Source: an uncultured Acidobacteriota bacterium (GTDB taxonomy: Bacteria; Acidobacteriota; Terriglobia; UBA7540). Taken from it: DNA of 64,000 nucleotides. The notes under the pieces are model-generated. The model saw nothing but the letters and a program-made list of their open reading frames with translations, ran no database searches and was not told where the DNA came from. This document shows positions 1 to 19,952 of this stretch, piece by piece. The DNA is taken from the NCBI GenBank assembly GCA_963804995.1, contig CAWDSK010000005.1, positions 320,001 through 384,000 on the forward strand. Direction: 5' to 3'. The position numbers were made by a program, and so were the translations under genes. Each line of letters begins with the position of its first letter. Within the stretch, counting starts at the first letter, position 1.

Positions 1-46
1 GAAAGCTGATAGCTGAAAGCTGGGAGCTTGGAGCTGCGAGTTAAAA

Positions 47-877
47 ATGGAACAAGGTAATAACAGCGTACTCAATCTACTTCTGGGGCTAAGTGCTGAT
101 CCCCAACGCGCGAACTCAGCGCTCAATCTCTTTGCAGCCGCCACAGCCGGTTTGGAAAAAAGCACCAAGGCAACGAGTGAGCACACGGTGGAACTCGTGA
201 AGGCCAACAAGGCCGAGCAAGACGCCATCGCGGCCTTTTCCCACCTGCACCAGCAGAGCCAAATGGCGGTGGTGCCGATTCGGCAGATGCATGAAGCCTT
301 CCGAAGGCTCGCGCCGGAAATTACTAATTCCACGGACCAGACCGAGCAAAACACCAATGCCGTCCAGCGTGCGGCGCTTGCCCTGCGCACGCAGACCGCC
401 GCGGGCGCAGAACTGGCCAGCAGTGGGCTGGCGGGATTAATCGCTGGCCGCAAGGCCCAGGCGGGCATGGAAGCCGTCTGGGAAACTGCACGGGGCATCG
501 CTCTGCTCGCGGAGGGAACCTGGCCGCCCAACCCTGCCGCCATCATGGCCGCGGGCCTGCACTTTGAAGCCGCAGCGCAATACGCGCTCCTGGCCGGAAC
601 CGGCAGCCACCGTCACAGCGTGGCGTCGGGGGGAGGCGGGGGGGGGTACGAGCACGGGCCTGCCTACGCCGGCGGCACATCCCCTTACGGGTCACCCGCA
701 CAAACCTTGGCCCAGGGCGCGGCCGTGCATTCACCGGCCGCCGGCAGCGGAGTGGTCATCATCCGCGGCACGCAGGCTTTCGAGGATTTCGTGGCGGGCG
801 CGGTTAATGGAGCCGTCTCGCGGGGTGTCACGGTGACCGCAACGACGTTGCAGAGAGGCAGCCCGGTAGGACATTGA
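47..877 (+). CDS. Short tape-measure-like / minor tail protein
   Basis: 276-aa Ala-rich helical ORF with a Gly-rich C-terminal part. An in-frame stop at 14-16 shows it is not a truncated longer ORF. It precedes Dit-like and tail-tip genes. Confidence 0.55.
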   Translation: MEQGNNSVLNLLLGLSADPQRANSALNLFAAATAGLEKSTKATSEHTVELVKANKAEQDAIAAFSHLHQQSQMAVVPIRQMHEAFRRLAPEITNSTDQTEQNTNAVQRAALALRTQTAAGAELASSGLAGLIAGRKAQAGMEAVWETARGIALLAEGTWPPNPAAIMAAGLHFEAAAQYALLAGTGSHRHSVASGGGGGGYEHGPAYAGGTSPYGSPAQTLAQGAAVHSPAAGSGVVIIRGTQAFEDFVAGAVNGAVSRGVTVTATTLQRGSPVGH

Positions 878-962
878 ATTGACGATTGAATGATTGACAT
901 TGGGGCGATTGAAACCGGCCACCGTTAATCTTCAATCGAGAATTGTCAATCGGCAATCAACA

Positions 963-1346
963 ATGGCTAACCCAGCAATCGTCTATCCCGTCTCCGGTGG
1001 TACAGCGACGCTCAATTTTCTGCGCCCGCCACGCCACGTACCGGCTTACTCACAAGCGGCCCTCCGTCACGACAATGTCGCCTCGAGCGGCGTGCGCGAA
1101 TCGATATTGGAACGCATCGACAATTATCTCGACCTCGATCTGGAGTGGGTCGGCCTGGGCGCCGACGCGCAGGCGTGGGCGCAGTTCATGGCCTATGCAC
1201 TTCAAGGCGGAGCCTTTGCCTATTATCCAGATAGTTCACAACTGGCCTTCACGAATTACTGGCTGGAAGACACCAACTGGACGGCGGCCTATAAGGCGCC
1301 GGGACAGTATACGTTTCACCTGAAGTTTCGACAGGTAATCACATGA
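963..1346 (+). CDS. Distal tail (Dit)-like phage protein
   Basis: MANPAIVYP... ~127 aa, beta-rich (FAYYPD, YTFHLKFRQV). Position directly after the TMP-like gene. Confidence 0.5.
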   Translation: MANPAIVYPVSGGTATLNFLRPPRHVPAYSQAALRHDNVASSGVRESILERIDNYLDLDLEWVGLGADAQAWAQFMAYALQGGAFAYYPDSSQLAFTNYWLEDTNWTAAYKAPGQYTFHLKFRQVIT

Positions 1347-1438
1347 ATCGGGTCACCGGGCCATCGGATCATCGGGTCATTGAACGCCAAACCCCGGGAC
1401 GATCCGATGAGCCGATGAACCGATGAACGGATAAACCG

Positions 1439-1621
1439 ATGATCTCAGGAAACCAGACCTGGCAACAGGGTTTGAATTCGCTGCAAAAGCAAGCGCTCTA
1501 CGTGCTGCAGATCCCGCAGTTCGGGATCGTCCTCGCCAGCTTCACACAAGCGCAAATCCAATCGCTCACCCAGTCCGGCTGGGGTGTGGGGCGCTGGGGG
1601 ATCAACGGCTGGGGAACATAG
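1439..1621 (+). CDS. Small phage-tail-associated protein, possibly the detached N-terminus of the hub protein
   Basis: 60-aa ORF ending in GWGVGRWGINGWG, co-oriented inside the tail operon. Confidence 0.5.
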   Translation: MISGNQTWQQGLNSLQKQALYVLQIPQFGIVLASFTQAQIQSLTQSGWGVGRWGINGWGT

Positions 1622-1767
1622 CGGATCAGGTGATCGCGTGATCCGATGGTCGGGTGAAAAAGGCTTGGGATGATCGGGTTTTCCGCTGCTCACCCGATCT
1701 CCCGATCACCTGATTCGAGAAGAACAGTTTCAGCCATCAAGTCTGTTGGAAGGAAGTTAAACGGGAA

Positions 1768-4700
1768 ATGCCAACCGTCTCCTCATATTGGCCGGGAAAT
1801 TACTGGCAAGCAATGAATCAGTCACTTGCCTGGCTCTATGGCCGTCAGTCAGGCCCCGCCGGTGACTGGCTGGCCAACGCCCTGTTCACGGCGGGCGCGA
1901 CCAGCACGCTAGAGACGCAGCAGCCTGCCTCCGGGCTCGTCGAATGCGGCCTCACCTCGTTGGTCAATTTCCTCACCGGTTTGACGGCGAGTGGCGCGCA
2001 AGAGGCCCCCCTAGCGATGACGCAGATCGAATCCATTGTCGCCACCCTCCCCCCAGGTCTCTTGCCCGACAACCAGCTTGGCCCGGACGGCTACCCGGTC
2101 AATGAATCCGGGGTAGCACTCGCGTGGGGCAATCTGCTAGTGAACGGTTACACGGTCAGTTCCGCAATGCAGCAGTCGATCAACACGCTACTCTATAGTG
2201 CCAATGCCACTCAGATCACTCCCGGCCCGCCCCAAACACCTGGGGTCATCGCCAAGTGGACGGCCAACAGCTACTATCCGTTCGGCACGCTCATTGTCGA
2301 CAGCAACGATAATACCCAGATCGCTCTTTACAACGGTGTGACAGTCAACACTAGCGCCGCACCCAATTGGCCGATGCAGCCCGGCGCTCTTACGGCTGAC
2401 AACACACAGGTCTGGAAGCTCATCGCGCTTGGGTACCAGAACATCGGCTGGGTGGCGACAGGCTATGTTTTCAATCTCCTTCAAGCTCTCGGTTCCTACC
2501 GCGTTGACGTATTCGTATATGGCGACGTGTGGTATTACCAAGGGAGCTCCAGCCTCCAAACCACCGCCCCGGGCGGTAATGCCATTCCCAACGCCGGTAC
2601 TTGGAGCCTGGGGAGCGTCCATCCGGGGCAACTGCTGGCGGTGCTCTATCCCACTAGTGTTTCACGGCCTGCCACGGGCTGGTATGGCTCGACAATTCCT
2701 GGCGGCTGGGTGGCACATACGAACACGGGAGTTGCGGAGACGCCCGGCCCCAACCAACTGGGAGGCAAGCTCCTCGGCTACAAGGCACAAATTTACGTTA
2801 AGACTGATATCGAATACCTGCAGGAAGACAATATCCCCATCGTCGTACAAAGTGACGGCTTTCACGCCCGCGTCGGGTTGAGTGTGGTTCCTTCCAGCGG
2901 TACGCCTGCGGTCCACATTCTTTTTGACGACCCCGTGGCCGGCTGGACCGAGGTATACGATTCCCTCCAGTCCGAACTCGTCTACCAGGACTTGCCGCGC
3001 TCTTACGACATACCGACCAGTGATCCTCTCTTTGTCGCCAATCCAGGCGCGACGAATCTCCCCGCCCTCCAGAATCGCAGCTACATCTATGATTGCGCCC
3101 TGGCCCTGATTGCTTACAGCTCGGCGGGGAATTTTGCGGCGGCAGAAAAAGTCATCAAGCAGTTGAACGCTTTTCTTGCCACGTCAGGATATCTGGCCTC
3201 GATGGTGCTTGAGAACGCCGAAGACGGATCGACAGCGCGGTGGTCGAAGAGTGGCAGCGGAGCGACGGTCACGAACGTCGCGGCCAGCGCCGTGTCGCCG
3301 CAGGAGCCGCCCTACGGCACGGGAAATATTTTGGATTTTCATGCCGGCTCGGCCAATGCCATTTTTACCTTTACCGGTAGCGGCTTCCCTGACACGACGG
3401 ACACTCACCTCAGTTTTGAGCACATGGAAGCCGCCGCGGTGGGTCTCCTTTTCGACATCAGCATTGCGACGGCACTGGGCCTCGTGACCGACATTCAAGT
3501 CACGAGCGCCCCAGCGGGTCCGGCCACTCTCGCGGGCAGAGTGATCACCATACCCATCGGTCCGGGGTCCAGTACCTGGCGCACCACGTTGGTTGATCTT
3601 CCGGCGCTCCTTTCTTCGCTCACGTCCGACACGCTCGTGAAGGTCACCGGCTTCAAGCTCACCCTCACCGCGGCGAATACCGATCTTTACTTTGATAACT
3701 TCAGTGTAGGAACCCCACAGCCCGCCAACTCCCTGAGCTTCAGTTACGACACTTACAACGGCCAGGTGGATCAGCCTTACATCCGCGCGGGGGCGATGGC
3801 CTGGGTGGTTTACGCCTACTGCATCTACATGCAGACCAGCCAGGACTACAGCTCCTGGCTGCAGTTGCAGGGCATGATCGACTTCCTGCTGAGCCTGCAA
3901 TCGAGCGCCAGCGACCTTACGAATGGCCTCTTCTACGAGGGCTATGGCGAGTACGTCGACCCAGGCTACCAGTTTGTCCCCGGGCTGACCGAGACAGTTG
4001 CGACCGAGCACCAGGTGGACTTGTGGTTTGCTTTTATGCGCGCCGCCGGCGTGCTGAGCAACGCCGCAGTGCAACTTCTGAAGACCGGCCAAATCACCAA
4101 TACGCAAGCCACGTCGATCACTTCAACTGTGGCCACTATCGAGACGGCTGCCAGCACGATCTGGACGAACTTGCTCGCGAACCTTTACATCGCACCCTCC
4201 GGCTCTGTGCCCGGCCACTTCGCCCAGGGCGCGAGCGCCCCTGTTCCCTGGACCCTGCGCCGAGCGGCCGGGTTGACGGCCTGGTACGAGGCGGACGCCA
4301 TTGCGGGGCTGACGGATGGACAACCGCTCACTCTGTGGGCAGACCAAAGTGGCAACGGCAACAGCCTCACAGCATCGGGAAGCCTCGCGCCGACCTATCA
4401 AACTGACGCCTTGAATGGTCTCCCTGTAGTGAGCTTCAACGGCTCAAACTCCATGCAATCGGCCGTCTTGGCGTTAAATCAGCCCACCACGGTTTTCATC
4501 GTCGGCAACTCGGCTGTCGACTCCATTCTCATAGACGGGCTCTCGCAGCCGTTTAGCATGAGCATGTTCGGAAACGGTGGGCTTACGAACCTTGCGCTTT
4601 CTGCGGGAGCAGGTGTGACCCTCCAGCAGAATGTCGCCAGCCTCAGCAATTATGCGGTGATGGGAGGGATTTTCAACGGCGCATCCAGCCTCAATAGTTA

Positions 4701-6939
4701 CAACGGTACGGTGGTGACAGGGAATGCGGGAGATAGAAACGCCTCAGGGTTGGTGGTCGGGTCCTCTCCAGGGCCCCTGTATGAGCTGACCGGCTCCATT
4801 GCTGAAGTGCTGGTTTTCAATTCCGTGCTCACCACCACAGAGCGTCAACAAGTTGAGGGTTACCTGGCCTGGAAGTGGGGCTTGCAGGCGAACCTGCCCT
4901 CCGGCCATCCCTACAAAAGCGCCGCGCCAGGCGGTTCCCGTGACACCAGCGAAGCCCTGGACGCTTCTGGCCACTGGGCGGCGCTGCTGGCCCACGCCAA
5001 CGGCCGCGATGACATTGCGCTTCAGTGCGCCGAGTTTGCCTACCAAAACTTCCTGCTGACTAACCAGACCATCGCCAAGTCGAACGCCGCGAACAGCTAC
5101 AACGAAACCTACCAGCTCGCGACGCCCTTTGCAGGTATGAAGCCCTACAACGATTCGCCCGGCGGCTATGCGGGTTCGCCCGCGTCCGTCTGGCAGGAAG
5201 GCACCTGGGGCATGATCCTGGTGCTCCTCGATCTCTACAACGTTCCGGGCCTCGCCAGCTTCTTCACAGGACTCGGGACCACGATTGACGCGGTCTTGAC
5301 GCAACTGATCCAAGGGCAAGCTACCATCCTGCCCGCCACGGGCAACGGCTCGTTGCTGGCCTATTCACTCGCCGCGCGCAGCCTACCCTATGAGTTCGAA
5401 GTGTGGCCGGCGCTTGCCCCCACAGCTTGGATGTGGCTGGTGGCCACGAATCCCAGTGTCTTACTTACTGTGGCCGGCCAGCCACAACTACTGCCTTATA
5501 TGTACATTCCCTCGGGAGCGGAACAATCCATCGATGACAAGAATGGCTCGAGCTCGGTGGGGCAGATGGAAATTCGCTGCATCGATCCGGGCGGATTGCT
5601 CCACACCCTGGCGGCGCAAGAAGAACTAATTGGCCAAATTGCTACTTTCAGCATGGGTTTTCCCGGCAATGCGCTGGGCGATTTCGTTCCGCTACATGTC
5701 CTGCAAATTTCCGAAATTGGGTTCGACGCTGATGGCCGCGTGATCATCAAGGCGAGCGATGTGAAACGTTTCGCGCAGGGTGCCTTTGTGTGGGCTAACG
5801 GGGGCCCCGAGGAATGGCTGCCGGGGCAGAAAAATACGTGGCAGCCCGGCGGCGCCCAGTGGCTGGCGAATGCGTTCCCGGTATCGAACGACAATCCCCG
5901 TTGGGTAAGTGGCAACCCGCTGGACATCTTCCTGGCCGCAATGCAAAACGAATTGGGCGTGGGCCAGGATCAGGCGCTGAGCGCGGTGGTGCAAGTGGGC
6001 GGTGCGGGCGAACTGGTGGCTGCGGTGAATCCATTTTGGGCCAAGTACCTGCCCGCTTCGACACTTTCGACGGAGGGCAATCAGTCCACGCTGATTAATC
6101 CGAATTTCTTTCTCGATGTTCCTAGCATTACGGCCCTGCGCGACAACATGTTCTCCGGCGACTGGTTTGAATTCAAAATCACCTCAACACAGCAAGCTCG
6201 CAGTTGGCTGGAAGATCAGATCCTGAAGCCGCTCGGCCTGGTCATGGTGGTGACAGCGAACGGCCAACTTACGCTCAAGCCCTTGAAGAATCCGGTCAAC
6301 CAAAGCCCGGTGTTTGCTTTCACGCAGCGCAACATCCAAGGAATCCCGCAGGTTTCACTTGCGCCGATTATTAATGCCCTGGCCTACCGGCTCAACGTGG
6401 ACGAGACCATGACCAATACCAGCGCGCGTACCTATAACACCACCGTTACCATGCTCCAGCAGGATAGCTATAACCTCTTCCGCTATCTTTACAACCAGCA
6501 GGTCGAGGCCACAGGCCTGCGCACCGCCCGCGGGGGCTTCTTGCGCGCCTTTCTGTTGGGTGACCAACTGTTCCGGCGCTACGGCTTCGCAACACCTGTT
6601 TATCAAATTGCGACGCACCTTGCGGCACTCCGGCCCGAGTTGAAGGACTGGGTTTCCCTTACGCATCCCTTGGTGCCCGATTACATCGGCGGCGGGCGCG
6701 GTGTGCTGAATGTACCGTGTGAAATTATTGGCCGGTCACCAGACTACGCGAACGGGCAGGTGCGGTTCACGCTCCTCAACATGCGGCGGGCTAACACCAC
6801 TACGCCTTATGAGATCGCGTCTGGATCAAGTGGGATGCCGCCTTACTCCCAAGCGACGGAAGAGCAGCAGCAGACTTTCTTCTTTATCTCACCCTCTTCG
6901 GGCGGGGTGGCAACACAGGAGTTGGGCACGATCTTTTGA
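1768..6939 (+). CDS. Giant mosaic tail-tip protein: (alpha/alpha)-barrel glycosidase-like domain with inserted CBM-like and LamG-like domains, plus a C-terminal tail hub-like region
   Basis: 1723 aa. Motifs YIYDCALAL, GAMAW, TEHQVD, ALDASGHW, VWQEGT. LamG-like block WYEADA...WADQSGNGN...GSIAEVLVF...VEGYLAWKWG at ~4240-4935. Hub-like C-terminus from ~5490. Confidence 0.6.
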   Translation: MPTVSSYWPGNYWQAMNQSLAWLYGRQSGPAGDWLANALFTAGATSTLETQQPASGLVECGLTSLVNFLTGLTASGAQEAPLAMTQIESIVATLPPGLLPDNQLGPDGYPVNESGVALAWGNLLVNGYTVSSAMQQSINTLLYSANATQITPGPPQTPGVIAKWTANSYYPFGTLIVDSNDNTQIALYNGVTVNTSAAPNWPMQPGALTADNTQVWKLIALGYQNIGWVATGYVFNLLQALGSYRVDVFVYGDVWYYQGSSSLQTTAPGGNAIPNAGTWSLGSVHPGQLLAVLYPTSVSRPATGWYGSTIPGGWVAHTNTGVAETPGPNQLGGKLLGYKAQIYVKTDIEYLQEDNIPIVVQSDGFHARVGLSVVPSSGTPAVHILFDDPVAGWTEVYDSLQSELVYQDLPRSYDIPTSDPLFVANPGATNLPALQNRSYIYDCALALIAYSSAGNFAAAEKVIKQLNAFLATSGYLASMVLENAEDGSTARWSKSGSGATVTNVAASAVSPQEPPYGTGNILDFHAGSANAIFTFTGSGFPDTTDTHLSFEHMEAAAVGLLFDISIATALGLVTDIQVTSAPAGPATLAGRVITIPIGPGSSTWRTTLVDLPALLSSLTSDTLVKVTGFKLTLTAANTDLYFDNFSVGTPQPANSLSFSYDTYNGQVDQPYIRAGAMAWVVYAYCIYMQTSQDYSSWLQLQGMIDFLLSLQSSASDLTNGLFYEGYGEYVDPGYQFVPGLTETVATEHQVDLWFAFMRAAGVLSNAAVQLLKTGQITNTQATSITSTVATIETAASTIWTNLLANLYIAPSGSVPGHFAQGASAPVPWTLRRAAGLTAWYEADAIAGLTDGQPLTLWADQSGNGNSLTASGSLAPTYQTDALNGLPVVSFNGSNSMQSAVLALNQPTTVFIVGNSAVDSILIDGLSQPFSMSMFGNGGLTNLALSAGAGVTLQQNVASLSNYAVMGGIFNGASSLNSYNGTVVTGNAGDRNASGLVVGSSPGPLYELTGSIAEVLVFNSVLTTTERQQVEGYLAWKWGLQANLPSGHPYKSAAPGGSRDTSEALDASGHWAALLAHANGRDDIALQCAEFAYQNFLLTNQTIAKSNAANSYNETYQLATPFAGMKPYNDSPGGYAGSPASVWQEGTWGMILVLLDLYNVPGLASFFTGLGTTIDAVLTQLIQGQATILPATGNGSLLAYSLAARSLPYEFEVWPALAPTAWMWLVATNPSVLLTVAGQPQLLPYMYIPSGAEQSIDDKNGSSSVGQMEIRCIDPGGLLHTLAAQEELIGQIATFSMGFPGNALGDFVPLHVLQISEIGFDADGRVIIKASDVKRFAQGAFVWANGGPEEWLPGQKNTWQPGGAQWLANAFPVSNDNPRWVSGNPLDIFLAAMQNELGVGQDQALSAVVQVGGAGELVAAVNPFWAKYLPASTLSTEGNQSTLINPNFFLDVPSITALRDNMFSGDWFEFKITSTQQARSWLEDQILKPLGLVMVVTANGQLTLKPLKNPVNQSPVFAFTQRNIQGIPQVSLAPIINALAYRLNVDETMTNTSARTYNTTVTMLQQDSYNLFRYLYNQQVEATGLRTARGGFLRAFLLGDQLFRRYGFATPVYQIATHLAALRPELKDWVSLTHPLVPDYIGGGRGVLNVPCEIIGRSPDYANGQVRFTLLNMRRANTTTPYEIASGSSGMPPYSQATEEQQQTFFFISPSSGGVATQELGTIF

Positions 6940-7011
6940 GAACAGTCGACAGTTGAAGGTTGAACGGGAGCAATCGTGGCCTTTTAACTTTCAACCTCCA
7001 ACGAGGCCCCC

Positions 7012-7509
7012 ATGTCCCAAATGTTGATGTCCGGAATTCCGGGTTTCTTTGATCTGGCTGACAGCACGATCGCTGGAGGCCAGCCGCTAACCGACTACGC
7101 GCTTGCCAAGATCAGCCACAACGCGAAATTTGGCGCCGTGCGCTGCGAGATCATCTCGATGGGCTTCTACGGACCCGGCGATACTGTGCAACCACCGGTT
7201 TCTCCGGTGGACGGCTATGATTACAGCTATCAGGAATGCCTTTTCATTCCCATTCATTTTTCCTCGCGCTCCCCAGCGGCAGGTTACGTGCCGGGGCAGG
7301 CCTCGCCGCCAGGACTCGCCAACAACGACCCGGGGCAGGGCAATCTCATCGTCTGTCCGTACCAACTTGATGTGAACGATGCGAATGGAAAGGTTTTGAT
7401 GCAGACCTACTGGTCGACGAGCGGGGCGGAAAACCAGGGAACCGTGAAAGTCATGGCCATTTGCCAGAGGCTAAGCGTGAATCTACCCGCGGGAGTGTCA
7501 GGTGATTAA
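7012..7509 (+). CDS. Hypothetical phage tail-associated protein
   Basis: 165-aa ORF with a GAGG RBS, co-oriented in the tail operon. Confidence 0.55.
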   Translation: MSQMLMSGIPGFFDLADSTIAGGQPLTDYALAKISHNAKFGAVRCEIISMGFYGPGDTVQPPVSPVDGYDYSYQECLFIPIHFSSRSPAAGYVPGQASPPGLANNDPGQGNLIVCPYQLDVNDANGKVLMQTYWSTSGAENQGTVKVMAICQRLSVNLPAGVSGD

Positions 7510-7607
7510 TTTCTCAGTTTACTCCGCTCGCGAGGAGCGGGGCTGGCTCATCGCTTCATTAATTGACTTCGGACTCCGGACCCGGACTCCGGACTCGGGG
7601 TGTCGCT

Positions 7608-8264
7608 ATGGCAATAACACGCACTGTGCTGCCTCGCAAAGGTCTTGTCCAGCCGCAGCACGGGATCACTCAATACGAGTCGGATATGGACGCGAACATG
7701 GCGGTGATCGATGCCAATGTCGCCTTCATGAGCGACCTGTCATCTGTCGTTGACACCTTGGTCGGTGACCTAGGATTGAACGGTCTGGTCACAGGCTTTC
7801 AGCTAACTACTTCCAACACGCTTAATCCCGGCCTGACCAACGGCGTCCTCTATGCGAACGGCTCGCGCTACGCGCCCTCTGAAGCTAGTGCAGGTTTGGC
7901 ACCTGCGAGCGCGACCTCCTATCTGTTCTACCAGGAGGAGAGCTGGCCCAACAGCTACTATTATCGACCGGTTCTAGCCTCCCTTAATCCCGGGGACGCC
8001 TTCATTGGTATCGTGGTTACAAACACTACCCAAGTCGTGAGTGTGACAACGGCGTCGAGCCTTTTCAGCCAAATCCCCGTGTCGGCCGCGGCCCCCGGCA
8101 ATTTCAGCGTGCCACACTTGCTGGGACGTACTCCCGTCGGAGCGCACATACGCATGACGAGCCCTGGTGCAATCTGGTGGCAGTCGCCAGTGGACACGGA
8201 CGGCGTAAACCTCTATCTGGTCGCTTCGGATGCCGGGGTGACCGCGAAGGTGCAGGTATGGTGA
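7608..8264 (+). CDS. Hypothetical phage tail/fibre-associated protein
   Basis: MAITRTVLPRKGL... Its beta-rich region (TSYLFYQ..FIGIVVTN..VSVT) resembles the N-terminal domain of the next gene (TNYVYLN..IAIVGTN..TSIT). Confidence 0.55.
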   Translation: MAITRTVLPRKGLVQPQHGITQYESDMDANMAVIDANVAFMSDLSSVVDTLVGDLGLNGLVTGFQLTTSNTLNPGLTNGVLYANGSRYAPSEASAGLAPASATSYLFYQEESWPNSYYYRPVLASLNPGDAFIGIVVTNTTQVVSVTTASSLFSQIPVSAAAPGNFSVPHLLGRTPVGAHIRMTSPGAIWWQSPVDTDGVNLYLVASDAGVTAKVQVW

Positions 8265-11200
8265 AAAAACAGCAATCAGCAGTCAGCCGTCAGTGTTCAG
8301 TGAAAAAGTATCTGAACATCCTGGGCTTTATCCTATCTGTTACGTTTGGGATACCGTCTGTTGCTCTTCCGCAGCAGCCGCAGACGCAGACTGATCCGAT
8401 CTATGCCGTTAATGCCAAGTACGTGCAAGGGGTCGGGCCCGGGTACTGGCCGACGGCCGGATCAAATCTCACGTTGAACCTCACATCCGGGACGGCCGTC
8501 TGTGGCAACACAGTTCAGACGTATGCCGGTGGCACGCTCACCTTGGCGGCCAATGCCACGAATTACGTGTATCTCAACACTGCGCAGAGCTGCATTCCTG
8601 CCTCCAACACGACCGGCTTCAATTCCACGACGATCCCCATCGCTATAGTCGGGACCAACACCAACTCCATCACCTCGATCACGGACGTCAGAACCATGTT
8701 CGTTTCAGGCGCTACCGGGACCCTCACCAGTGTCGCAATGACGGGCGACGGGGTGATTTACAACACGGCGGTTCCGGGCTCGCCGATCACTACGAGTGGA
8801 ACGCTCGCGCCTCAGCTTCTATCCCAGACTGCCAACACCCTGCTGGCCGGACCAGGCTCGGGGGTTGCCGCTCTGCCGACTTTCCGCACTTTGGTGTCTG
8901 CCGACCTGCCCACCATCGCCATCTCCGGAGGTGGCACCGGCCAGACCACTGCAGCGGCTGCGTTCAATGCCCTTTCGCCCCTTACCACGGAAGGTGACCT
9001 AAACTATTACCACACCGGCGCAAACATCCGCTTGGGTATAGGCGGTAGCGGCCAATGTCTGACCTCCAATGGCACGGATCCTGCTTGGGGTTCATGCGGT
9101 GGCGGGGGGGCTTGGAGCGCGATCGGCAATCCCACTGCCAATCTCACTCTCTCGATGTCCACTTACACAACGACATACAACCACACGTCGGCAGCGAACT
9201 GGACCTGGGCGAACACGACCGCAGCAACTTCCGGCACAGCTCAGTCCAGCCCCATTTTCAATCTTTCTGGCACCTATTGGACAGGTGCTGCCTCCGGCGC
9301 GGATAGCTGGTCGCTTCAAGACCTCATAGCCAGCGGCACCAACGGAAACTCGATACTGACTTTAGCCCATGCTGGGTCGACCACCGGGATAGTTTCAGTC
9401 AGTGTTCCAAACCTGATCAATACGAGCACCACCCAATATGGGGTGGAGTACGGCGGTGGAGCGTCGGCCGTCATCAGATCGACAGCGGCAGGAGGTAGTG
9501 GAGTTCCTTTGCTGGGCCAGGGGGCAAGTGCGGCTCCGATTTTCGGTGCCCTGAATCTTGCGGGCGGCTCATCTATCGTTACCGGAACTCTTCCCTTTGG
9601 GTATGGCGGGACAAACTCCACTTCGTTTACGCAGTATGGCGTAGTGGTGGCCGGTGCGAGTTCCTTGAGCACAGTCGGCCCAAACGCCTCAAGCGGATTG
9701 CCGTTGCTTTCACAGGGTGCCTCTGCGAACCCGGCCTTTGCTGTGTTGGGTATCGTCGGCGGTGGCACCGGCCAAACCACTGCCACCGCTGGCTTCAACG
9801 CCTTGTCCCCTCTCACTACTGAGGGTGACCTGCTTTACTACCATACTTCAGCGAACGCCCGCCTGGCCCGGGGCACGAATGGCCAATGTTTGACTTCGAA
9901 CGGTACGGATCCTGTTTGGGGCTCCTGTAGCACTGGAAGCGGAACCGTAACCAGCGTGGCTCTCGCGATGCCTTCGATCTTCTCCGTCTCCGGTTCACCG
10001 GTGATAAACTCCGGCACGCTGACGGCGAGCTTGACGAGTCAGACTCAAAACCTGGTTTTTGCGAGCCCGAGTGGAAGTTCGGGCAACCCGAGCTTTCGAT
10101 CCCTCGTAGGAGCTGACCTGCCCGCTCCGACATCATCCACCTTAGGCGGAGTCAAATCCCTCACTTGTTCGGCCAGCCAGTTTGTTAATCAGATTTCCAC
10201 CGCAGGCGCACCAGTATGCGCTACCCCCAGCGGTGGTGGTTCGGGCCTGGGCAACGGGGGAACCGTCATCGACGCCAGCTTGCAAGCAGGGTCAGACTTT
10301 GGAGCTAAGGTCAACGCAGCCCTTGCCCTATTGCCAGCGACGGGAGGGGTAGTGGACGCACGGGGTCTGGTGGGAACTCAATCATCCTCTTCAAGTATCA
10401 CCATTCCGCGAGCGGTCACTGTGCTTCTAGCCTGCGGGCTAAACGTAACCTTCACTGTGGCCCCTATGTTCACAGTTTATGGCAATCTGGTTGGGTGTGG
10501 CGGCCATATGGCTGGCCCGCAGACTTCGCTCAGCTTGAGCGGAACCACCGGAGGCAGCGCGATCGTTGGGGGAAGTGTGACCGGTGTCGCCATCTACGGG
10601 GTCTCAACTTCTGACGGGTCAATTGGCTTTGACTGGAGCAGCGGACCCTCAACCTCACAGTTGACAAATAGCTCAGCCTCAAACTTTCAGTATGACTACA
10701 AGATTGGTGGCGGAGGTTCGGAGTCATCCTACAATCACTTGGAAGATGACGCTGCCTACGGGGCTGGAACATATGGGTTTTGGGTCACGGGGAACGCGGC
10801 TTTCAATGAACTTGAACATCTGAATTGCGCGGGCCTGCAAACCTGCTACGAGTTTGATGCGCAGGTAGGTACGGCGGTCAACCTGAGTGCGGAGAGCTTC
10901 ACTGTCGATGCGTTTGCCTTCAATAATTCTGGGAGTCAAGTTTTTGGGGCCTACATCGAAAACGGTCCAGTGCCCGTCCATTACAAGGGGGGCTATAACA
11001 ATATTGTTATGGGTGGCACTGCCAGAATCGTCGGGTCGGGAGTAGTCTACGACGCAGGCGTAGACCAAATATCCAATTACCTCCAGGGCGTGGATTTCGG
11101 TGGAGGTCCGGCATACATGGGCTACTGGGCCATGACTTACCCTCTCTTTAACTTCCCCGCCCTGAATGACCCATTCACGACTGAATTGGACCCTAGCGTG

Positions 11201-13120
11201 TCTTGGGGCGGTACTTGGCAGGCACTCCAGTATAGCCCGAAGGGAAGTCACGGCCCCACGCAGGGCTACTCGGGTTATGCGCCCATCGGTCTAGGCGGCA
11301 TCGAGAATCGCGGCGGCATTACCACTTGGGGCAGCCTTGTGGTTAATGGCCTTCCCAGCGGATCAAACATTCCAGCGCCCACCATGGCGTGCACGGGAAG
11401 CGGTACAGGAACCACGTATACGGCGTCTCTGGTAATTAGCGACTGGAACGGCAATAAGACAACGCCCAGCACTGCCGCCACAATCAAGTGTCCCAATCCG
11501 CCATCTGGGACGTACCCGATTACTGTCACCCCCGTAACATCTTGGTATGGTAGTCCGGCAAATGGCGTCAAGTCCTACGACTACCTTTGGGGCGACACCG
11601 CGCACAGCTTCGCGCTTGCAACCCTTGGGACTCAGAGTTACACAGGTGGAAGCCTTGGTGCCTACACCGCAGCCGCGCGCAACGCAACGGGGGATGGCTA
11701 CGTTAACGGGTGGCTTGGGGTGGGCACCTCCACGCCAGGACGAGCCTTGGAGTTAAGTTTCAATGCCATCTCCTTGGGAGATCAGGGATTTAGGTTATCC
11801 TACAGCCCCTCCCCGACTAGTTATTACGGTGAGATGGTCCAACACTATAACGGCTCCGGAAACGGGTTTAACTACAACTTCAACCTGCATGATGCCGATA
11901 CCGCATACTCGGGAACTCCATTTTCGATCTCTTCGCACGGCCAGGTTGGAATTGGAACGGCCAACCCCGGACAACAGCTTGATGTTGCGGGCGGTTACGT
12001 CCGCTCCGACACGGGTTTTTGCATCACGTCGAACTGTGTGACCTCGCTGTGGTCAAATCCCATGACCACCCTGGGTGACATTGTTTACGCTGGTGCGGGC
12101 GGAGCCGGCACGCGGCTGGCGGGCAACACTTCCGCAACGACGTATTTCCTCGGTCAGACCGGGACTGGCAGCGCCTCCGCAGCCCCCATATGGTTGCAGC
12201 TCAACTTTGGGAACATCTCGGGCACTGTCCAGCCCGGGCAGCTTTTGACACCCGTGAACGCGCAGGCGGGCACGAGCTACACAATTGCCATAAGTGACCA
12301 GAACAATCTCGTCACCTTCAACAACAGTTCCAGTGTTGCCCTAACCCTGCCACAGCCTGGAGGCTCCTTTCCGGCGGGTTTCGCGATCGAGATTGAAAAT
12401 CTTGGAGCGGGTGTCGTGACTGTGACACCGACTGCGAGTACCTTGAATGGGCAAACCAGCCTGACCTTTGTGCAGAATCAGGGCGCTACGCTCGTCAGCG
12501 ACGGCACAAATTGGAAGGCCAACCTCGGGTACGGAATTCAAGGGGCAACGAACTTGCTTACCCAGTACGCCGTTCCCTTTGTGACCTCCCAGGGCACGAT
12601 CAATCAGATCAGCAACAACACCACCACTACCCCCATGTATCTAAAGATGACCGGCACTGGTGTAACAGGACAGCTTCCCGCCTGGGGAACACTTACTACT
12701 GGAGATTTGCCGTCGCACTTGGCCACCCTCTTGACTCTGTGGTGCTACAGCGCCTTGAGCGCAACCTCCGGGACATACTATTTCGGTGGCTTCGGGGGGG
12801 TGCAGACAGCTTGTAATTCGCTTACTACCACCCTGACGGGCGGGATGCCGGTTGGCGTGGGCGGCACAATCAAGAACCTCCGTTGCGCCGCGGGAGCAGC
12901 AGGGCACGCTGCGGGAAGCGGAGTAATCAAAATCTACGACGGCGGATCCGCCAAAAGCCCCACCTGCACGATCGGTACAGGGACAACGTGTAGTGACACA
13001 TCTAATTCCTTCACCTATGCTGCTGGTGATCTGATTCAATTCTCTGTGGCGAGTGGGGGCGCCGGCGAAACTTTGGCCAACGTCTCCTGTTCGGCTGAAG
13101 TTTGGGTCAGTGCTAACTGA
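8258..13120 (+). CDS. Tail fibre/adhesin-like protein with beta-helix region and apparent Sec signal peptide
   Basis: ~1620 aa, Gly/Ser/Thr rich. GGTGQTTA and PTFRxLVxADLP fibre repeats, GIGTANPGQQLDV motif, central beta-helix-like segment. The N-terminus KKYLNILGFILSVTFGIPSVALP is signal-like (alternative GTG start at 8300). Confidence 0.65.
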   Translation: MVKKQQSAVSRQCSVKKYLNILGFILSVTFGIPSVALPQQPQTQTDPIYAVNAKYVQGVGPGYWPTAGSNLTLNLTSGTAVCGNTVQTYAGGTLTLAANATNYVYLNTAQSCIPASNTTGFNSTTIPIAIVGTNTNSITSITDVRTMFVSGATGTLTSVAMTGDGVIYNTAVPGSPITTSGTLAPQLLSQTANTLLAGPGSGVAALPTFRTLVSADLPTIAISGGGTGQTTAAAAFNALSPLTTEGDLNYYHTGANIRLGIGGSGQCLTSNGTDPAWGSCGGGGAWSAIGNPTANLTLSMSTYTTTYNHTSAANWTWANTTAATSGTAQSSPIFNLSGTYWTGAASGADSWSLQDLIASGTNGNSILTLAHAGSTTGIVSVSVPNLINTSTTQYGVEYGGGASAVIRSTAAGGSGVPLLGQGASAAPIFGALNLAGGSSIVTGTLPFGYGGTNSTSFTQYGVVVAGASSLSTVGPNASSGLPLLSQGASANPAFAVLGIVGGGTGQTTATAGFNALSPLTTEGDLLYYHTSANARLARGTNGQCLTSNGTDPVWGSCSTGSGTVTSVALAMPSIFSVSGSPVINSGTLTASLTSQTQNLVFASPSGSSGNPSFRSLVGADLPAPTSSTLGGVKSLTCSASQFVNQISTAGAPVCATPSGGGSGLGNGGTVIDASLQAGSDFGAKVNAALALLPATGGVVDARGLVGTQSSSSSITIPRAVTVLLACGLNVTFTVAPMFTVYGNLVGCGGHMAGPQTSLSLSGTTGGSAIVGGSVTGVAIYGVSTSDGSIGFDWSSGPSTSQLTNSSASNFQYDYKIGGGGSESSYNHLEDDAAYGAGTYGFWVTGNAAFNELEHLNCAGLQTCYEFDAQVGTAVNLSAESFTVDAFAFNNSGSQVFGAYIENGPVPVHYKGGYNNIVMGGTARIVGSGVVYDAGVDQISNYLQGVDFGGGPAYMGYWAMTYPLFNFPALNDPFTTELDPSVSWGGTWQALQYSPKGSHGPTQGYSGYAPIGLGGIENRGGITTWGSLVVNGLPSGSNIPAPTMACTGSGTGTTYTASLVISDWNGNKTTPSTAATIKCPNPPSGTYPITVTPVTSWYGSPANGVKSYDYLWGDTAHSFALATLGTQSYTGGSLGAYTAAARNATGDGYVNGWLGVGTSTPGRALELSFNAISLGDQGFRLSYSPSPTSYYGEMVQHYNGSGNGFNYNFNLHDADTAYSGTPFSISSHGQVGIGTANPGQQLDVAGGYVRSDTGFCITSNCVTSLWSNPMTTLGDIVYAGAGGAGTRLAGNTSATTYFLGQTGTGSASAAPIWLQLNFGNISGTVQPGQLLTPVNAQAGTSYTIAISDQNNLVTFNNSSSVALTLPQPGGSFPAGFAIEIENLGAGVVTVTPTASTLNGQTSLTFVQNQGATLVSDGTNWKANLGYGIQGATNLLTQYAVPFVTSQGTINQISNNTTTTPMYLKMTGTGVTGQLPAWGTLTTGDLPSHLATLLTLWCYSALSATSGTYYFGGFGGVQTACNSLTTTLTGGMPVGVGGTIKNLRCAAGAAGHAAGSGVIKIYDGGSAKSPTCTIGTGTTCSDTSNSFTYAAGDLIQFSVASGGAGETLANVSCSAEVWVSAN

Positions 13121-13328: not shown

Positions 13329-14666
13329 CTAAAGGCCTGCGGGATTATCCAACCAATAGATTGTTAATCCAGATAACAACTTAGGGTAGAAGTCGGTGGA
13401 TTTCTGTGGCAGGGGGCGGTCAGCCAATGCGTTGTCGCGCACCGCTTCCACCGGTGTAGGGTTAAGCAGGAATGCTACCTGGCCTCGGCCTTTTTCCACC
13501 TGTTCTGCCGCCAGAGGCAATTCACGGTAATACGACAAGTTTCTTTCCTCGCGTACGGCCAGTTGATCGATGCCAAGTAGCCGCTCGAGTACTAGGCGGT
13601 GCAGCAGGACCACGTCGAGTCGGCGCAGTGTTGGGGAGAGGTCCGAAAGCGCCCTGTCAAGATCGAATTCGCCGCGGAGACGCAGCAGTGCTAGTTTACC
13701 CGGCCCCGCATAGGCGGCGAGGGTCGGCCGCTCGAGGCCTGCCTCTCGGAGGCGCCGGAGGATTCGCCCTTCCCAACCGCTCGCCGGGGGTCGCACGCCT
13801 ACTTCTTCCCAATCGAACATAGCACGGGCATCGGAGGAGAATTTCGCCCAGTCGAAACCCGCAAGGTTGTGCACCAAGCGATGCGTGGGGAGGATGGTAA
13901 GGCCGTCTGTCTCCATGCGGATAAGAGTCACCATCAGGAATTCAGCGCGGTCGTCTAAGCGGTCGAGCGCACGGCAATGGTCGCGATAGGCGAGTGCCGT
14001 CTCGTAGCGATGGTGGCCGTCTGCGATGACGAGTTGCTTGTCCTTCATCGCTCCCACTACTTCCGCGAGGATCTTGGGGTCGCCGACGCGCCACACAGAA
14101 TGACGTGTGCCGTACTCATCAATGACCCGTTCCCATGGTTGGGACGAGGTGTGCAGGGCCAGCAGGTTTTCCACCTCGCCAGATGGGTCGCTATAGAGCA
14201 TGAATATTTGTCCGAAGTGCGCGCGAGTGGCCTTCAACAATTCCAGGCGATCGGCCTTGGGGCCTGAGAGCGTCTCCTCGTGCCGGTGCACAACCCGCGC
14301 TGCATAGTCTTCGAGGCGCAGCAGGGCAACGAAGCCGCGCCGTTGCTTTCGCATTCCGGGCTGGCCCGGCAGCTCATATTCCTGGTAATAAGGATAGATC
14401 GCCGGTTCGGCCTCGCCGGTGACCACGTCTTTCGCTATCCACTCGTGAAAATCGCGCGCTGCGCCCGCGTAGACCTTGTCCGCAGAGCCATCCTCCGGTT
14501 CCGTACGCCGGCGAATGATGCGCGCCAGATTGTGGGGGCTCATCTCGTAATAGCGCGACTGCATTTCTGCTGAAATCTTATCGTAGGGTTGCGTTACTAC
14601 GGCCGCGAGGGCAACGTTTTTACCCGGGTTATAATGGAACGCACGGAATGGGTGAATATCAGCCAT
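13329..14666 (-). CDS. DUF1015 family protein
   Basis: MADIHPFRAFHY, VTQPYDKIS, HEETLSGPKADRLEL, IADGHHRYETA, PQKSTDFYPKLLSGL. Confidence 0.9.
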   Translation of the reverse strand: MADIHPFRAFHYNPGKNVALAAVVTQPYDKISAEMQSRYYEMSPHNLARIIRRRTEPEDGSADKVYAGAARDFHEWIAKDVVTGEAEPAIYPYYQEYELPGQPGMRKQRRGFVALLRLEDYAARVVHRHEETLSGPKADRLELLKATRAHFGQIFMLYSDPSGEVENLLALHTSSQPWERVIDEYGTRHSVWRVGDPKILAEVVGAMKDKQLVIADGHHRYETALAYRDHCRALDRLDDRAEFLMVTLIRMETDGLTILPTHRLVHNLAGFDWAKFSSDARAMFDWEEVGVRPPASGWEGRILRRLREAGLERPTLAAYAGPGKLALLRLRGEFDLDRALSDLSPTLRRLDVVLLHRLVLERLLGIDQLAVREERNLSYYRELPLAAEQVEKGRGQVAFLLNPTPVEAVRDNALADRPLPQKSTDFYPKLLSGLTIYWLDNPAGL

Positions 14667-15025
14667 GAGTATCTCATCCAATCGAATGGGAGTTGAATTC
14701 CTAAAACTATCATACCGCTCGCGATGCGTTGAGGCTTGTCGCAAAAGGGCGCACACAGAATGGAGACAGTCGGCGAGTCTGAGGGGCTTGTGGACGAATC
14801 TCATGCGCTGTCGACCGGATCGGCCACAACTAGGACAAGCCTCAGGTGAGATCTTTACTGCAAAACCAAACCTTGCCACACTCGGAACGGATGACACCCT
14901 TGGTAGGTTCTCAAGCAAACTGCTAGAATGGCAGGTTCTTGAATACTGGTGTAGCTTCTCCGGGTGGCCTTACACGCACCTGAGGCCGCGCTGAATACAG
15001 GCTCTCGTCCGAAAGGCCCGCGCCC

Positions 15026-17941: not shown

Positions 17942-18037
17942 CACGGTGCCCAACCCCAATTGGTTTTTGCGGGACTCGAAACCATAGCGAAGGGAAGGAT
18001 TGCCACGCCCGTGCCCTTACCCCATAATCGGAATTTC

Positions 18038-19952
18038 ATGAAGCACATCATTGTTGGAACCGCAGGTCACATCGATCATGGCAAATCGGCGCTGGTCCTG
18101 GCGCTCACGGGCACGGACCCTGATCGCTGGGAGGAAGAGAAGCGGCGCGGTATCACGATCGATCTGGGTTTCGCCCACCTGGACCTGGACAAGGATTTGC
18201 GCGTCGGGTTCATCGACGTTCCCGGCCACGAGCGCTTTGTGCGCAACATGCTGGCGGGAGTGGGCGGCATCGATATCGTCCTGATGGTCGTGGCCGCTGA
18301 TGAGTCGATCAAACCTCAAACGCGGGAGCACTTCGACATCTGCAAGCTGCTGGGCATTCGCAAGGGTCTGGTGGTGATCACCAAGGCGGACCTGGTGGAT
18401 CAGGACATGGCGGACCTGGTTCGTTTGGAGGTGCAGGAGTTTGTCGCGGGCTCATTTCTAGAAGGCGCGCCAATTCTTGCCGTGAGTGCGCGTACAGGCG
18501 AGGGGTTGGAAGAGCTGAAGAGTGAGATTCGCCGGCTGAGCCTGGAGCTGCCTCCCCGGCCGGTTGATCTTCCCTTTCGACTTCCCATCGACCGCTCTTT
18601 CGTCATCAAGGGATTTGGAGCGGTTGTGACCGGGACGCTCATCGCCGGCACAGTTGAGAAGGAAGCTGAGGTTGAGATCTTCCCCTTGGGCCGGCGCGTG
18701 CGCGTGCGCGGAATCGAGGTATACGATGCGCCCACCGACTGCGCCAGGGCAGGCCAGCGCACCGCTCTCAACCTGGCCGCTATCGAGGCCAAGCAGATCA
18801 CGCGGGGCATGGTGCTGGCGGCGCCGGGATTGTTTCAGCCCACCACGCGCCTGGATTGCACCCTCAGCATGCTGCCCCGGGCTCGGCCACTCAAGAACCA
18901 CACGCAGGTGCATTTCCATTGCGGAACCGCGGAGATGCTGGCTCGGGTCGTGCTTACTCGAGGGCAAAGAACTGCAGCCCGGCGTCACGGGTTTTGTGCA
19001 GTTGCAGTTGGCGGAGCATGGCTTGTTCGTTCCGGGTGACCGCTTCATTGTCCGGCAGTTTTCGCCCGTCACCACCATTGGCGGCGGCAGCGTGCTCGAC
19101 AATCAGCCGCTCAAGCATCCCGCCGGTGACGCGGCCACACTCGAAGCCCTGCGGGTGTTGGAATGCGGGGAACCGGATGCCCGGCTGGAGCTCCTTGCGC
19201 AGCAGGCCGGGGAAGCCTCGCTGGCCGCGCTTGCCGCCCGCACGGGCTGGAAACCTGCTGACGTTCTCCGCGTTGCAAAATCCCTCGAAACCAGGAAATG
19301 CCTCGTGCTTCTCGGACAACCACCCCATCTGGTGGTTCATAAGAAACACTTCGACCAACTTGCCAAGCTCGCTGTAGAGCAGCTCGGAAAATTTCATGCC
19401 GCGAACCCGCTGGTGGCTGGGTTACAGAAAGAGGAGCTTCGCGCCAAACTGGTCCCTGCCGGCAAATCGGTTCCCGTGCCTTCACCGATGTTGCTCAATG
19501 GATTGCTGCAATCCCTGGCCGCGCAGGGCAGGGTTGACGTACAGGGCGAAACGGTTCGCCTGGGTGGGCGGCAGGTTCAGCTATCACCGGAGGAGATCGC
19601 CGCGCGCGACGCCATCACGGCGGCTTTCGAAAAGGCAGGCTTGGCCGTGCCCAGCGCCGGAGAAGTCCTGGCGGGTTTGCGCATCGACCGGACGCGCGCC
19701 GAGAAGCTGCTGAGAATCCTGCTCAAGGAAAACGCCCTGCACAGAATTACGGAGGACTTGATCTTCCATCCGGCGGCCCTCCGAGACCTTCGCCAAATCC
19801 TAGCCCGTCGCAAGACGCAGAATGCCCGCCTGAGCGTTACGGATTTCAAACAACTGACGGGGTTGACTCGGAAGTACGCCATCCCCCTGCTCGAATACCT
19901 CGATCGCGAGCGTGTGACTCGGCGCGAGGGCGACGAGCGTGTCATCCTCTAA
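18038..19952 (+). CDS. selB: Selenocysteine-specific elongation factor SelB, frameshifted at ~18956
   Basis: [24 protein letters not shown] and DVPGHERF in the first frame. The second frame continues [10 protein letters not shown]...TIGGG...[15 protein letters not shown] (winged-helix C-terminus). One extra base in GTGCTTACTCGAG. Confidence 0.92.

Follow-up and report, generated by a model that had tools for sequence, protein, structure and literature searches.

The question raised by the left end of the window is whether the tail genes found there belong to an active prophage or to a particle retained by its host. The window is a stretch of 64,000 nucleotides (contig CAWDSK010000005.1, G000:C5:320001-384000) from an uncultured acidobacterium of the class Terriglobia, whose genome, G000, is 92% complete. 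It contains the 3' half of an operon with a total span of 32 kb (G000:C5 301168-333120), the upstream half of which is numbered here as L001 (G000:C5 301168-319894 = L001:1168-19894). Kept together in this locus, mostly as a single copy under purifying selection, are lysis, head and non-contractile tail genes; the transposase and MuB are gone, and the transposon ends appear to be. We regard it as very probable that the locus is the domesticated late operon of a Mu-like transposable siphophage, retained by one Terriglobia family. That it makes a particle resembling a gene transfer agent (GTA) is a reading we favor with less confidence; the GTA function itself we infer. Domestication is well supported because gene content, prevalence, single copy number, synteny with dtd, purifying selection and tree agreement with rpoB all point to it. 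Largely on these grounds the proposal of a sequence-only reading of the window, a host-retained, non-autonomous, short-tailed particle locus, stands; the tailocin-like character it also suggested does not, since the locus has a terminase, a portal and a capsid on which purifying selection acts.

Distribution, inheritance and ancestry

Tallies across the family include up to eight unpublished genomes (G066, G137-G143). A profile of the Dit-like (distal-tail) protein matches 111 of 133 family genomes, 67 of the 73 of high quality and 27 of 30 genera, with a single match in 103 genomes, and none of four genomes of the order's other family. A search for the barrel-bearing N-terminal part of the giant tail-tip protein was positive in 71 of 79 family genomes and negative in all 322 other genomes of the class that were searched. 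The terminase large subunit (TerL) was matched in 70 of the 86 family genomes searched, once only in 63 of them, and keeps its catalytic motifs; the PF03237 model, which counts one terminase in G000, misses some of the TerL copies in these retained, or resident, loci. The record titles of the 80 best capsid loci in the genome collection all name Acidobacteriota or Terriglobia. Within the window's genus, 23 of the 28 other genomes have a capsid match (one of them a satellite copy only), mostly at 91-96% identity, as against 62-78% for the host DUF1015 gene. Synteny, which the sequence-only reading had named as a check, is found outside this genus: 15 of 17 resident copies from other genera start directly after dtd, one shares the common downstream flank only and one is cut by its contig. 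The loci of G031 and G036 also lie at the dtd site, which is constant across eight genera. Among the IMG/VR contigs with this Dit (L320-L327), eight of nine have the resident architecture of short tape measure protein (TMP) and giant hub, and two run into host genes at their ends. These contigs are probably resident loci that were entered as viruses, and soil virus catalogues may thus count such loci as phages.

Selection was gauged by the ratio of nonsynonymous to synonymous divergence (dN/dS), taken as the median of query-anchored pairwise NG86 values within the genus, with dS near 1 and pairs that are not independent. Values across the locus genes run from 0.046 to 0.5, below 1 as the earlier reading had anticipated: 0.055 for the capsid (0.056 for rpoB), 0.13 for the giant protein, 0.15-0.16 for TerL, 0.12-0.17 for the portal, 0.3-0.5 for the genes resembling the terminase small subunit (TerS), and 0.47 for the fibre, on poorly alignable columns. 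Synonymous divergence of the locus is similar to that of rpoB. The genus tree covers 22 of the 29 genomes, those with sufficient coverage, and contains 9 of 12 supported rpoB splits, label shuffles giving at most two; patristic distances of locus and rpoB correlate with rho = 0.87. Cross-genus trees of 28-33 taxa (with 12 genomes of the genus, G032 and G033 not among them) share 7-10 of 12-15 supported rpoB splits, depending on the module, with 10 of 14-15 at the level of the family, and genera cohere in the locus trees. Judged from these trees, inheritance is mostly vertical, with module exchange with prophages; the host-congruent tree that had been asked for is thus obtained for most supported splits, its deep branches and the genes exchanged with live prophages being the part that departs from it.

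Genes for autonomous mobility are missing. Neither transposase, MuB, integrase nor replication gene was found in the operon, and complete copies in other genera have no transposase, MuB or integrase between the flanking host genes. Two Mu-like transposases and two MuB proteins used as tblastn queries found no match in G000; a PF09299 search, run without a positive control, had no match anywhere, and a MuB search in three IMG/VR fragments was empty and uninformative. At the right end of the window neither integrase nor att-like repeat was found before host genes resume with DUF1015 at 13329, as had been noted from the sequence; the tyrosine recombinase closest to the locus is ~190 kb off. The upstream half likewise agrees with the expected lack of integrase and replication genes; it is the repressor, also expected to be lacking, that part of the genus has kept.

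The likely starting point is preserved in three second copies that are Mu-like prophages (G149:C43, G085:C57, G103:C40). These transposable siphophages resemble the locus in gene order and by homology, from repressor and endolysin through the head to the hub, but keep a transposase upstream (with MuB identified in two), a portal of 882-1257 aa, a TMP of 612-738 aa and a hub protein without barrel; resident copies have a portal of 438-617 aa and a TMP of 240-344 aa. By this comparison of sequences the three complete prophages would represent the ancestral state, from which the A/B genes, the portal extension and half of the TMP have since been lost. We infer that a Mu-like siphophage was stripped of transposition, fixed in the ancestor of the family and refreshed by recombination with related phages, most clearly so in the window's genus. 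In the resident copies the TMP is centrally deleted, the portal has lost its C-terminal extension and the hub has gained a glycan-type barrel. Since the ancestor's living relatives occur in the same genomes, such steps (transposase loss, TMP shortening, a new tail-tip domain) are directly readable.

The shortening is plain in the TMP of the window (47..877, + strand, 276 aa), identified by a weak PHROG 167 match (E=0.053), by alignment and by lengths (dN/dS 0.19). Phage and satellite TMPs of 520-740 aa are matched over their first ~40 and last ~200 aa, and their center is deleted here; in the alignment, which used phage and satellite TMPs of 520-570 aa, the 276-aa protein covers both ends. Among the 16 genus loci with a TMP match, 13 have it whole at 255-295 aa, two have it split and one is ended by the contig edge, so that the short TMP noticed at first sight is genuine. 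Hydropathy gave no clean separation of long from short TMPs.

Proposed GTA-like particles and satellites, and competing explanations

The definition of GTA viriforms by Kogay et al. 2022 has, in the portion at hand, six criteria (PMC9662315), three of which describe what is found here: virion proteins derived from Caudoviricetes, full endogenization and mostly vertical inheritance. Endogenization is multi-locus, the TMP being unlinked in G029 and regulators in G000. The other three criteria concern the particle itself: mostly random host DNA inside, a head too small for its own genes, and DNA delivery to other cells, on which the satellites and ComEC would bear indirectly. If the locus makes a GTA-like particle, its Mu-type terminase, without a replicated phage genome, would fill heads with host DNA after induction in some cells, and lysis of the host cell would free the particles. 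Variable fibres and carbohydrate modules would bind and open the glycan of the recipient surface; a short tail (~50 nm by analogy with RcGTA) would deliver DNA to the periplasm, where competence proteins would take it up. ComEC is encoded in G000. Mu-like mini-transposons would put these functions to their own use, bringing a scaffold, a capsid and a full-length TMP with them.

RcGTA and CcGTA (Rhodogtaviriformidae), so far as the available sections of the sources describe them, are like the locus in being vertically kept head-tail operons without replication, with a short TMP and a large multi-domain tail-tip protein, and in having some genes unlinked (PMC7296036, PMC9662315); a TMP of ~216 residues goes in RcGTA with a 49-nm tail, periplasmic delivery and competence uptake (PMC7296036). 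The locus differs in its Mu-type terminase, portal and protease (Portal_Mu PF06074, Mu-like_Pro PF10123) and lambda-E-like capsid. RcGTA has a head module with HK97-type portal and protease. Lysis genes head the operon of the locus. Its giant protein joins an (alpha/alpha)6 barrel to a whole gp27-like hub, which forms the C-terminus, and only a 60-aa ORF stands between Dit and giant protein, with no separate hub or tail-peptidase gene. In RcGTA, according to the sections at hand of PMC7296036, the domains of the megatron come in a different order, and a hub and a peptidase encoded apart from it act alongside; because of these differences in domain order and partner genes, 'megatron' is an analogy for the giant protein. 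By gene content the locus is a domestication independent of RcGTA and not its homolog, and the likeness to RcGTA drawn in the sequence-only reading survives as analogy. Established GTAs derive from few lineages. The locus is a new, independent variant of the GTA/PBSX kind, and would offer a near-universal GTA candidate of different viral ancestry in an abundant soil and peat family. We found no description of this locus, of an Acidobacteriota GTA or of GTA satellites in the literature, where coverage of subscription papers was incomplete and supplements were excluded; an Acidobacteria genomics paper (PMC5900883), in its accessible part, treats prophages only.

A second capsid clade, 80-84% identical, led to elements of 7.6-10 kb bounded by inverted repeats. 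These carry a DDE (rve) transposase, a MuB-like ATPase (AAA_22) and helix-turn-helix (HTH) regulators, after which comes the cargo. This comprises a C-terminal scaffold end, a conserved gene for 280-400 aa and a varying set of capsid, decoration, chaperone and long TMP genes, and no terminase, portal or tube gene was found in those examined. Their marker gene occurs in 28 of 133 family genomes, G000 not being one of them, and as a single-protein query had no match in IMG/VR. One right end occurs with four different host flanks in G013 and with two in G018. In a PF03237 search of 20 satellite-bearing genomes (other terminase families not searched) 15 had one match, three none and two more; 11 of the 15 single matches sit at the resident locus by coordinates (one genome being unpublished). 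TMPs were recovered from nine of 15 satellite loci tried, and in eight the last 170 residues are closer to a resident TMP than to any of five phage TMPs. These eight carry a genus-specific terminal motif; two are copies of one element, and one has its best match in another genus. Satellite scaffold fragments follow the host lineage. A long TMP of their own is what one would expect if the helper is short-tailed, because a helper with a normal TMP would make it needless, phage sampling here being thin. We put forward, tentatively and at somewhat less than even confidence, that the satellites replicate by transposition and borrow the terminase, portal and tail of a family-wide Mu-derived GTA, so that, with the scaffold, capsid and full-length TMP of the satellites, a particle for periplasmic delivery turns into an infectious vehicle. 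As parasites of a GTA they would have the TMP C-terminus matched to the tail tip of the host genus.

Phage satellites (P4-like, PICI, cf-PICI, PLE, PICMI) resemble these mini-transposons in being small, with few virion genes and a need of a helper for packaging, going by the accessible sections of a review of such hitchers, which make no mention of 'gene transfer agent' or 'transposable phage' (PMC11389934). The mini-transposons differ in using a DDE transposase, a MuB-like ATPase and terminal inverted repeats at many insertion sites, in a cargo of scaffold end, capsid and long TMP, and in an apparent helper that is a domesticated locus. PICI, cf-PICI, P4 and PLE integrate at att sites with an integrase. 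The satellite class associated with the locus may be new in kind; if the reading is right, its helper is a host-domesticated viriform, not a phage. Such satellites would offer a natural test of two questions: can a GTA be exploited by selfish elements, and what does TMP length contribute to DNA delivery?

Several findings weigh against domestication, GTA-like particles or their satellites. Locus position varies in the window's genus, the one part in which the expected synteny fails; in G000 no copy of the locus occupies the dtd site. At their deep branches the locus and rpoB trees conflict. Capsid and portal of live prophages fall among the resident copies of their own host genus, and a phage-type contig in IMG/VR encodes a capsid 92% identical. 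Because capsids are close to those of phage-type relatives, heads may be of phage size, in which case all 32 kb of the locus could fit inside. A repressor/Ner-like pair, on the earlier reading's own list of refuting signs, is kept in part of the genus. Among the satellites, the TMP of G018 (one of nine) is closer to phage, and in the window's genus resident and phage copies are not told apart by the scaffold fragments. The evidence is genomic, drawn from genes, and the same signs would fit PBSX-like killer particles. The G000 copy itself is broken: all ORFs had been called intact, which holds within the window, whereas upstream TerL has an in-frame TGA, the only stop among 78 matches, and the portal, whole in 17 of 18 genus loci, is frameshifted. 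The TGA lies in a hypervariable, repeat-filled loop that is open in nine of nine relatives. Assembly error is a plausible cause of both breaks, because 3 of 39 tested host genes are split in G000 too, as is selB of the window, and recent decay may be another. Contigs from three DNA runs with small shares spanned neither break. selB (window 17960-19952) and the ATP synthase gamma gene (G000:C5 282750-283603) appear frameshifted, which itself suggests indel errors in the assembly.

The main rival is a killer particle like PBSX of Bacillus subtilis, in which host DNA is packaged as a by-product and the particle serves as a bacteriocin against related strains, with fast-changing fibres setting the target range. 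PBSX, a defective prophage that has been conserved, resembles the locus in its head, tail and lysis genes and can package host DNA only; the host fragments are random and 13 kb long, yet the particle is a bacteriocin (PMC7667829, from the sections at hand). The fibres of the locus vary strongly in length and number and the repressor pair persists in part of the genus, as this explanation would have it; against it, no sheath gene was found in the locus by Pfam, PHROG or gene order, and the TMP was shortened, not lengthened, in an operon of Mu-like origin. The PBSX tail is contractile, and in non-contractile tailocins the TMP is likely the membrane-piercing part. A particle lethal to its recipients, moreover, would be of no use to satellites. 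We hold such a killer to be unlikely. F-type tailocins (F pyocins, monocins) are host-kept non-contractile tails with variable fibres and lysis genes, and are headless, whereas capsid, portal and terminase are among the conserved genes here.

Selfish persistence is rather improbable: the locus would supply the structural genes of a Mu-like system in two parts, or would be a grounded prophage that recombination keeps renewing, and would be kept because its transposable partners spread with it, without gain to the host. The occurrence of satellites in 28 of the 133 genomes, in multiple copies with different flanks, the module exchange with prophages and the relocation in the window's genus are what such spread would produce. 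Most locus-bearing genomes, G000 included, are without a detected satellite, however; one satellite end word (2 mismatches allowed; a single end type tested) is absent from resident loci, and the site is fixed across eight genera. An anti-phage decoy, an operon that incoming Mu-like phages switch on and whose short TMP and near-identical head proteins lead to dud virions and early lysis, is about equally improbable. It would suit the close homology to co-circulating phages and the duplicated, fast-evolving TerS-like genes, and assembly-interference defences are known (PMC10884400, PMC11364771, in the parts available); one or two genes would do for it, as against ~30 under selection that include a tail-tip barrel missing in sampled prophages. 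An ordinary active or recently decayed prophage, for which the phage-like operon, the retained repressor and the two broken genes of G000 might speak, can be dismissed as very improbable, given that no transposase, MuB or integrase lies in or near any complete copy examined, that the locus is single-copy across the family and that its synonymous divergence is that of rpoB.

The tail-tip protein and other genes of the operon

Seven co-oriented, stop-free ORFs on the + strand occupy 47-13120, in agreement with the intact tail operon of complete 276-aa TMP, Dit-like, giant and fibre genes first described. A Pfam search had no matches among the tail proteins of the window. The giant protein (1768-6939, 1723 aa) was modelled in two parts. 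Its C-part (5479..6939, +) is, on its model, a gp27-like baseplate hub of the T5 pb3, Mu gp44 and Tal fold: the C-terminal 486 residues are modelled at pLDDT 85 and pTM 0.86, and Foldseek E values against T5 pb3, MuSo2 and Mu gp44 range from 1e-11 to 1e-8, with no match of the hub profile to PDB sequences. Hub homologs also occur stand-alone at 440-480 aa. The N-part (1768..5478, +) was modelled from the G015 ortholog (78% identical) at pLDDT 51 overall, mostly 70-95 over residues 440-860, and its folds are assigned beyond residue 409. It has an (alpha/alpha)6 barrel of the AGE-epimerase/GH76 types (best VIA Z 21.0, rmsd 3.7, 302 aligned residues) with an inserted jelly roll that matches carbohydrate-binding modules (CBM). 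Several acidic and His residues are nearly invariant among 120 homologs; the fold alone is no proof of enzymatic activity, and the glycan role is predicted. Residues ~823-1054 are a LamG-like insertion missing in most relatives. In sum, outside residues 1-409, alpha/alpha barrels and gp27-like hubs are its best folds.

Between the TMP and the giant protein lie the 127-aa Dit-like protein (963..1346, +; dN/dS 0.09), named from its position and an Atlas lead to PF05939 Phage_min_tail (18% of a cluster) and DUF6711 (score 0.96), and a conserved 60-aa ORF (1439..1621, +; dN/dS 0.10). The latter, overlooked in the earlier reading, has identical length and place in 18 related loci and is probably a tail-tip subunit. 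The conserved 165-aa protein at 7012..7509 (+), without family match, has the lowest dN/dS of the locus, 0.046, and by its position is a probable baseplate or fibre adaptor; the 218-aa protein at 7608..8264 (+; dN/dS 0.09), whose place is constant across genera, is a probable fibre-attachment protein. The variable tail fibre or spike (8261..13120, +, 1619 aa) matches PHROG 21978 and has a length of ~630 to 2500 aa in relatives; a PDB sequence search with residues 1-1199 had no solved-structure match. Some 95 kb downstream, at G000:C5 428591-430033, lies a 481-residue segment that shares 72% identity with the central part of the fibre protein.

Upstream, the full head module that had been looked for is present. 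The operon begins with an HTH regulator (from G000:C5 301168), followed by a glucosaminidase endolysin (PF01832), a peptidase-like ORF and two holin-like ORFs; the supposed absence of lysis genes is thus contradicted by genes at the 5' end, outside the window. Three paralogs resembling TerS (Mu gp27-like; L001:5824-7049), the longest of which matches Mu gp27 clusters, precede TerL, the portal (PF06074), a protease/scaffold (PF10123), a decoration-like ORF and the major capsid protein (PHROG 1005, with a match to PDB 3bjq). Head-tail joining and terminator-like ORFs, a tail tube and overlapping tail chaperone frames extend to G000:C5 319894; the head-tail, terminator and chaperone labels are based on position and size, without family match, and in the chaperone overlap the canonical slippery heptamer was not found in 16 genus copies. 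The TerS-like paralogs stand two to three in tandem, are variable in copy number and evolve fast; their variation may reflect relaxed packaging specificity or satellite conflict. Extra fibre-like genes, possibly head fibres, occur between portal and protease or before the tail tube in L040 (G026), L127 (G022) and L227-L228 (G095).

Regulators, repeats and flanks

In G015 and G026 the operon is preceded, at a distance of 3-6 kb, by a repressor gene; in G015 the repressor is followed by Ner-like, receiver-like and zinc-finger genes without A/B genes between. The same repressor/Ner-like/receiver-like/zinc-finger cassette is found in G000 at C5 132544-136172, 165 kb from the operon. In G029 the TMP is outside the operon, retained on another contig, and its apparent loss there was accordingly rejected; L202 and L204 also have no space for a TMP between chaperone and Dit.

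A GC-rich hairpin, single-copy in G000, stands directly 5' of the endolysin gene (L001:1617-1655, G000:C5 ~301617-301655). Ten other genomes of the genus carry it at 92-97% identity (11 matches), with diverged flanks, and in relatives it is non-coding; it is a possible attenuator or antitermination site for the long operon. A 24-bp palindrome 5' of the operon was rejected as operator since the repeat occurs genome-wide. The intergenic gaps hold host repeats, as the sequence-only reading had said, four of nine tested motifs having 60-85 copies genome-wide; the nine were chosen from the locus itself and the enrichment is therefore biased. A repeat-rich spacer (1..46) marks the junction with the upstream half. 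Host palindromic and heptamer repeats also stand in frame at the same terminase loop (L001:8220-8330) in every species, with a different sequence each time, and in the peptidase, endolysin, portal and protease genes; an Rfam Acido-Lenti-1 match lies between the TerS-like and TerL genes (L001:7291-7335). The operon is bordered on the left by a nitrilase-like host gene, so labelled from sequence, and on the right in G000 by the host DUF1015 gene (13329..14918, -); both were rejected as conserved flanking genes, and in relatives DUF1015 is not the neighbour. Further into the window, 34086-35522 holds an ORF whose start we take, from its motif, to resemble a group II intron reverse transcriptase.

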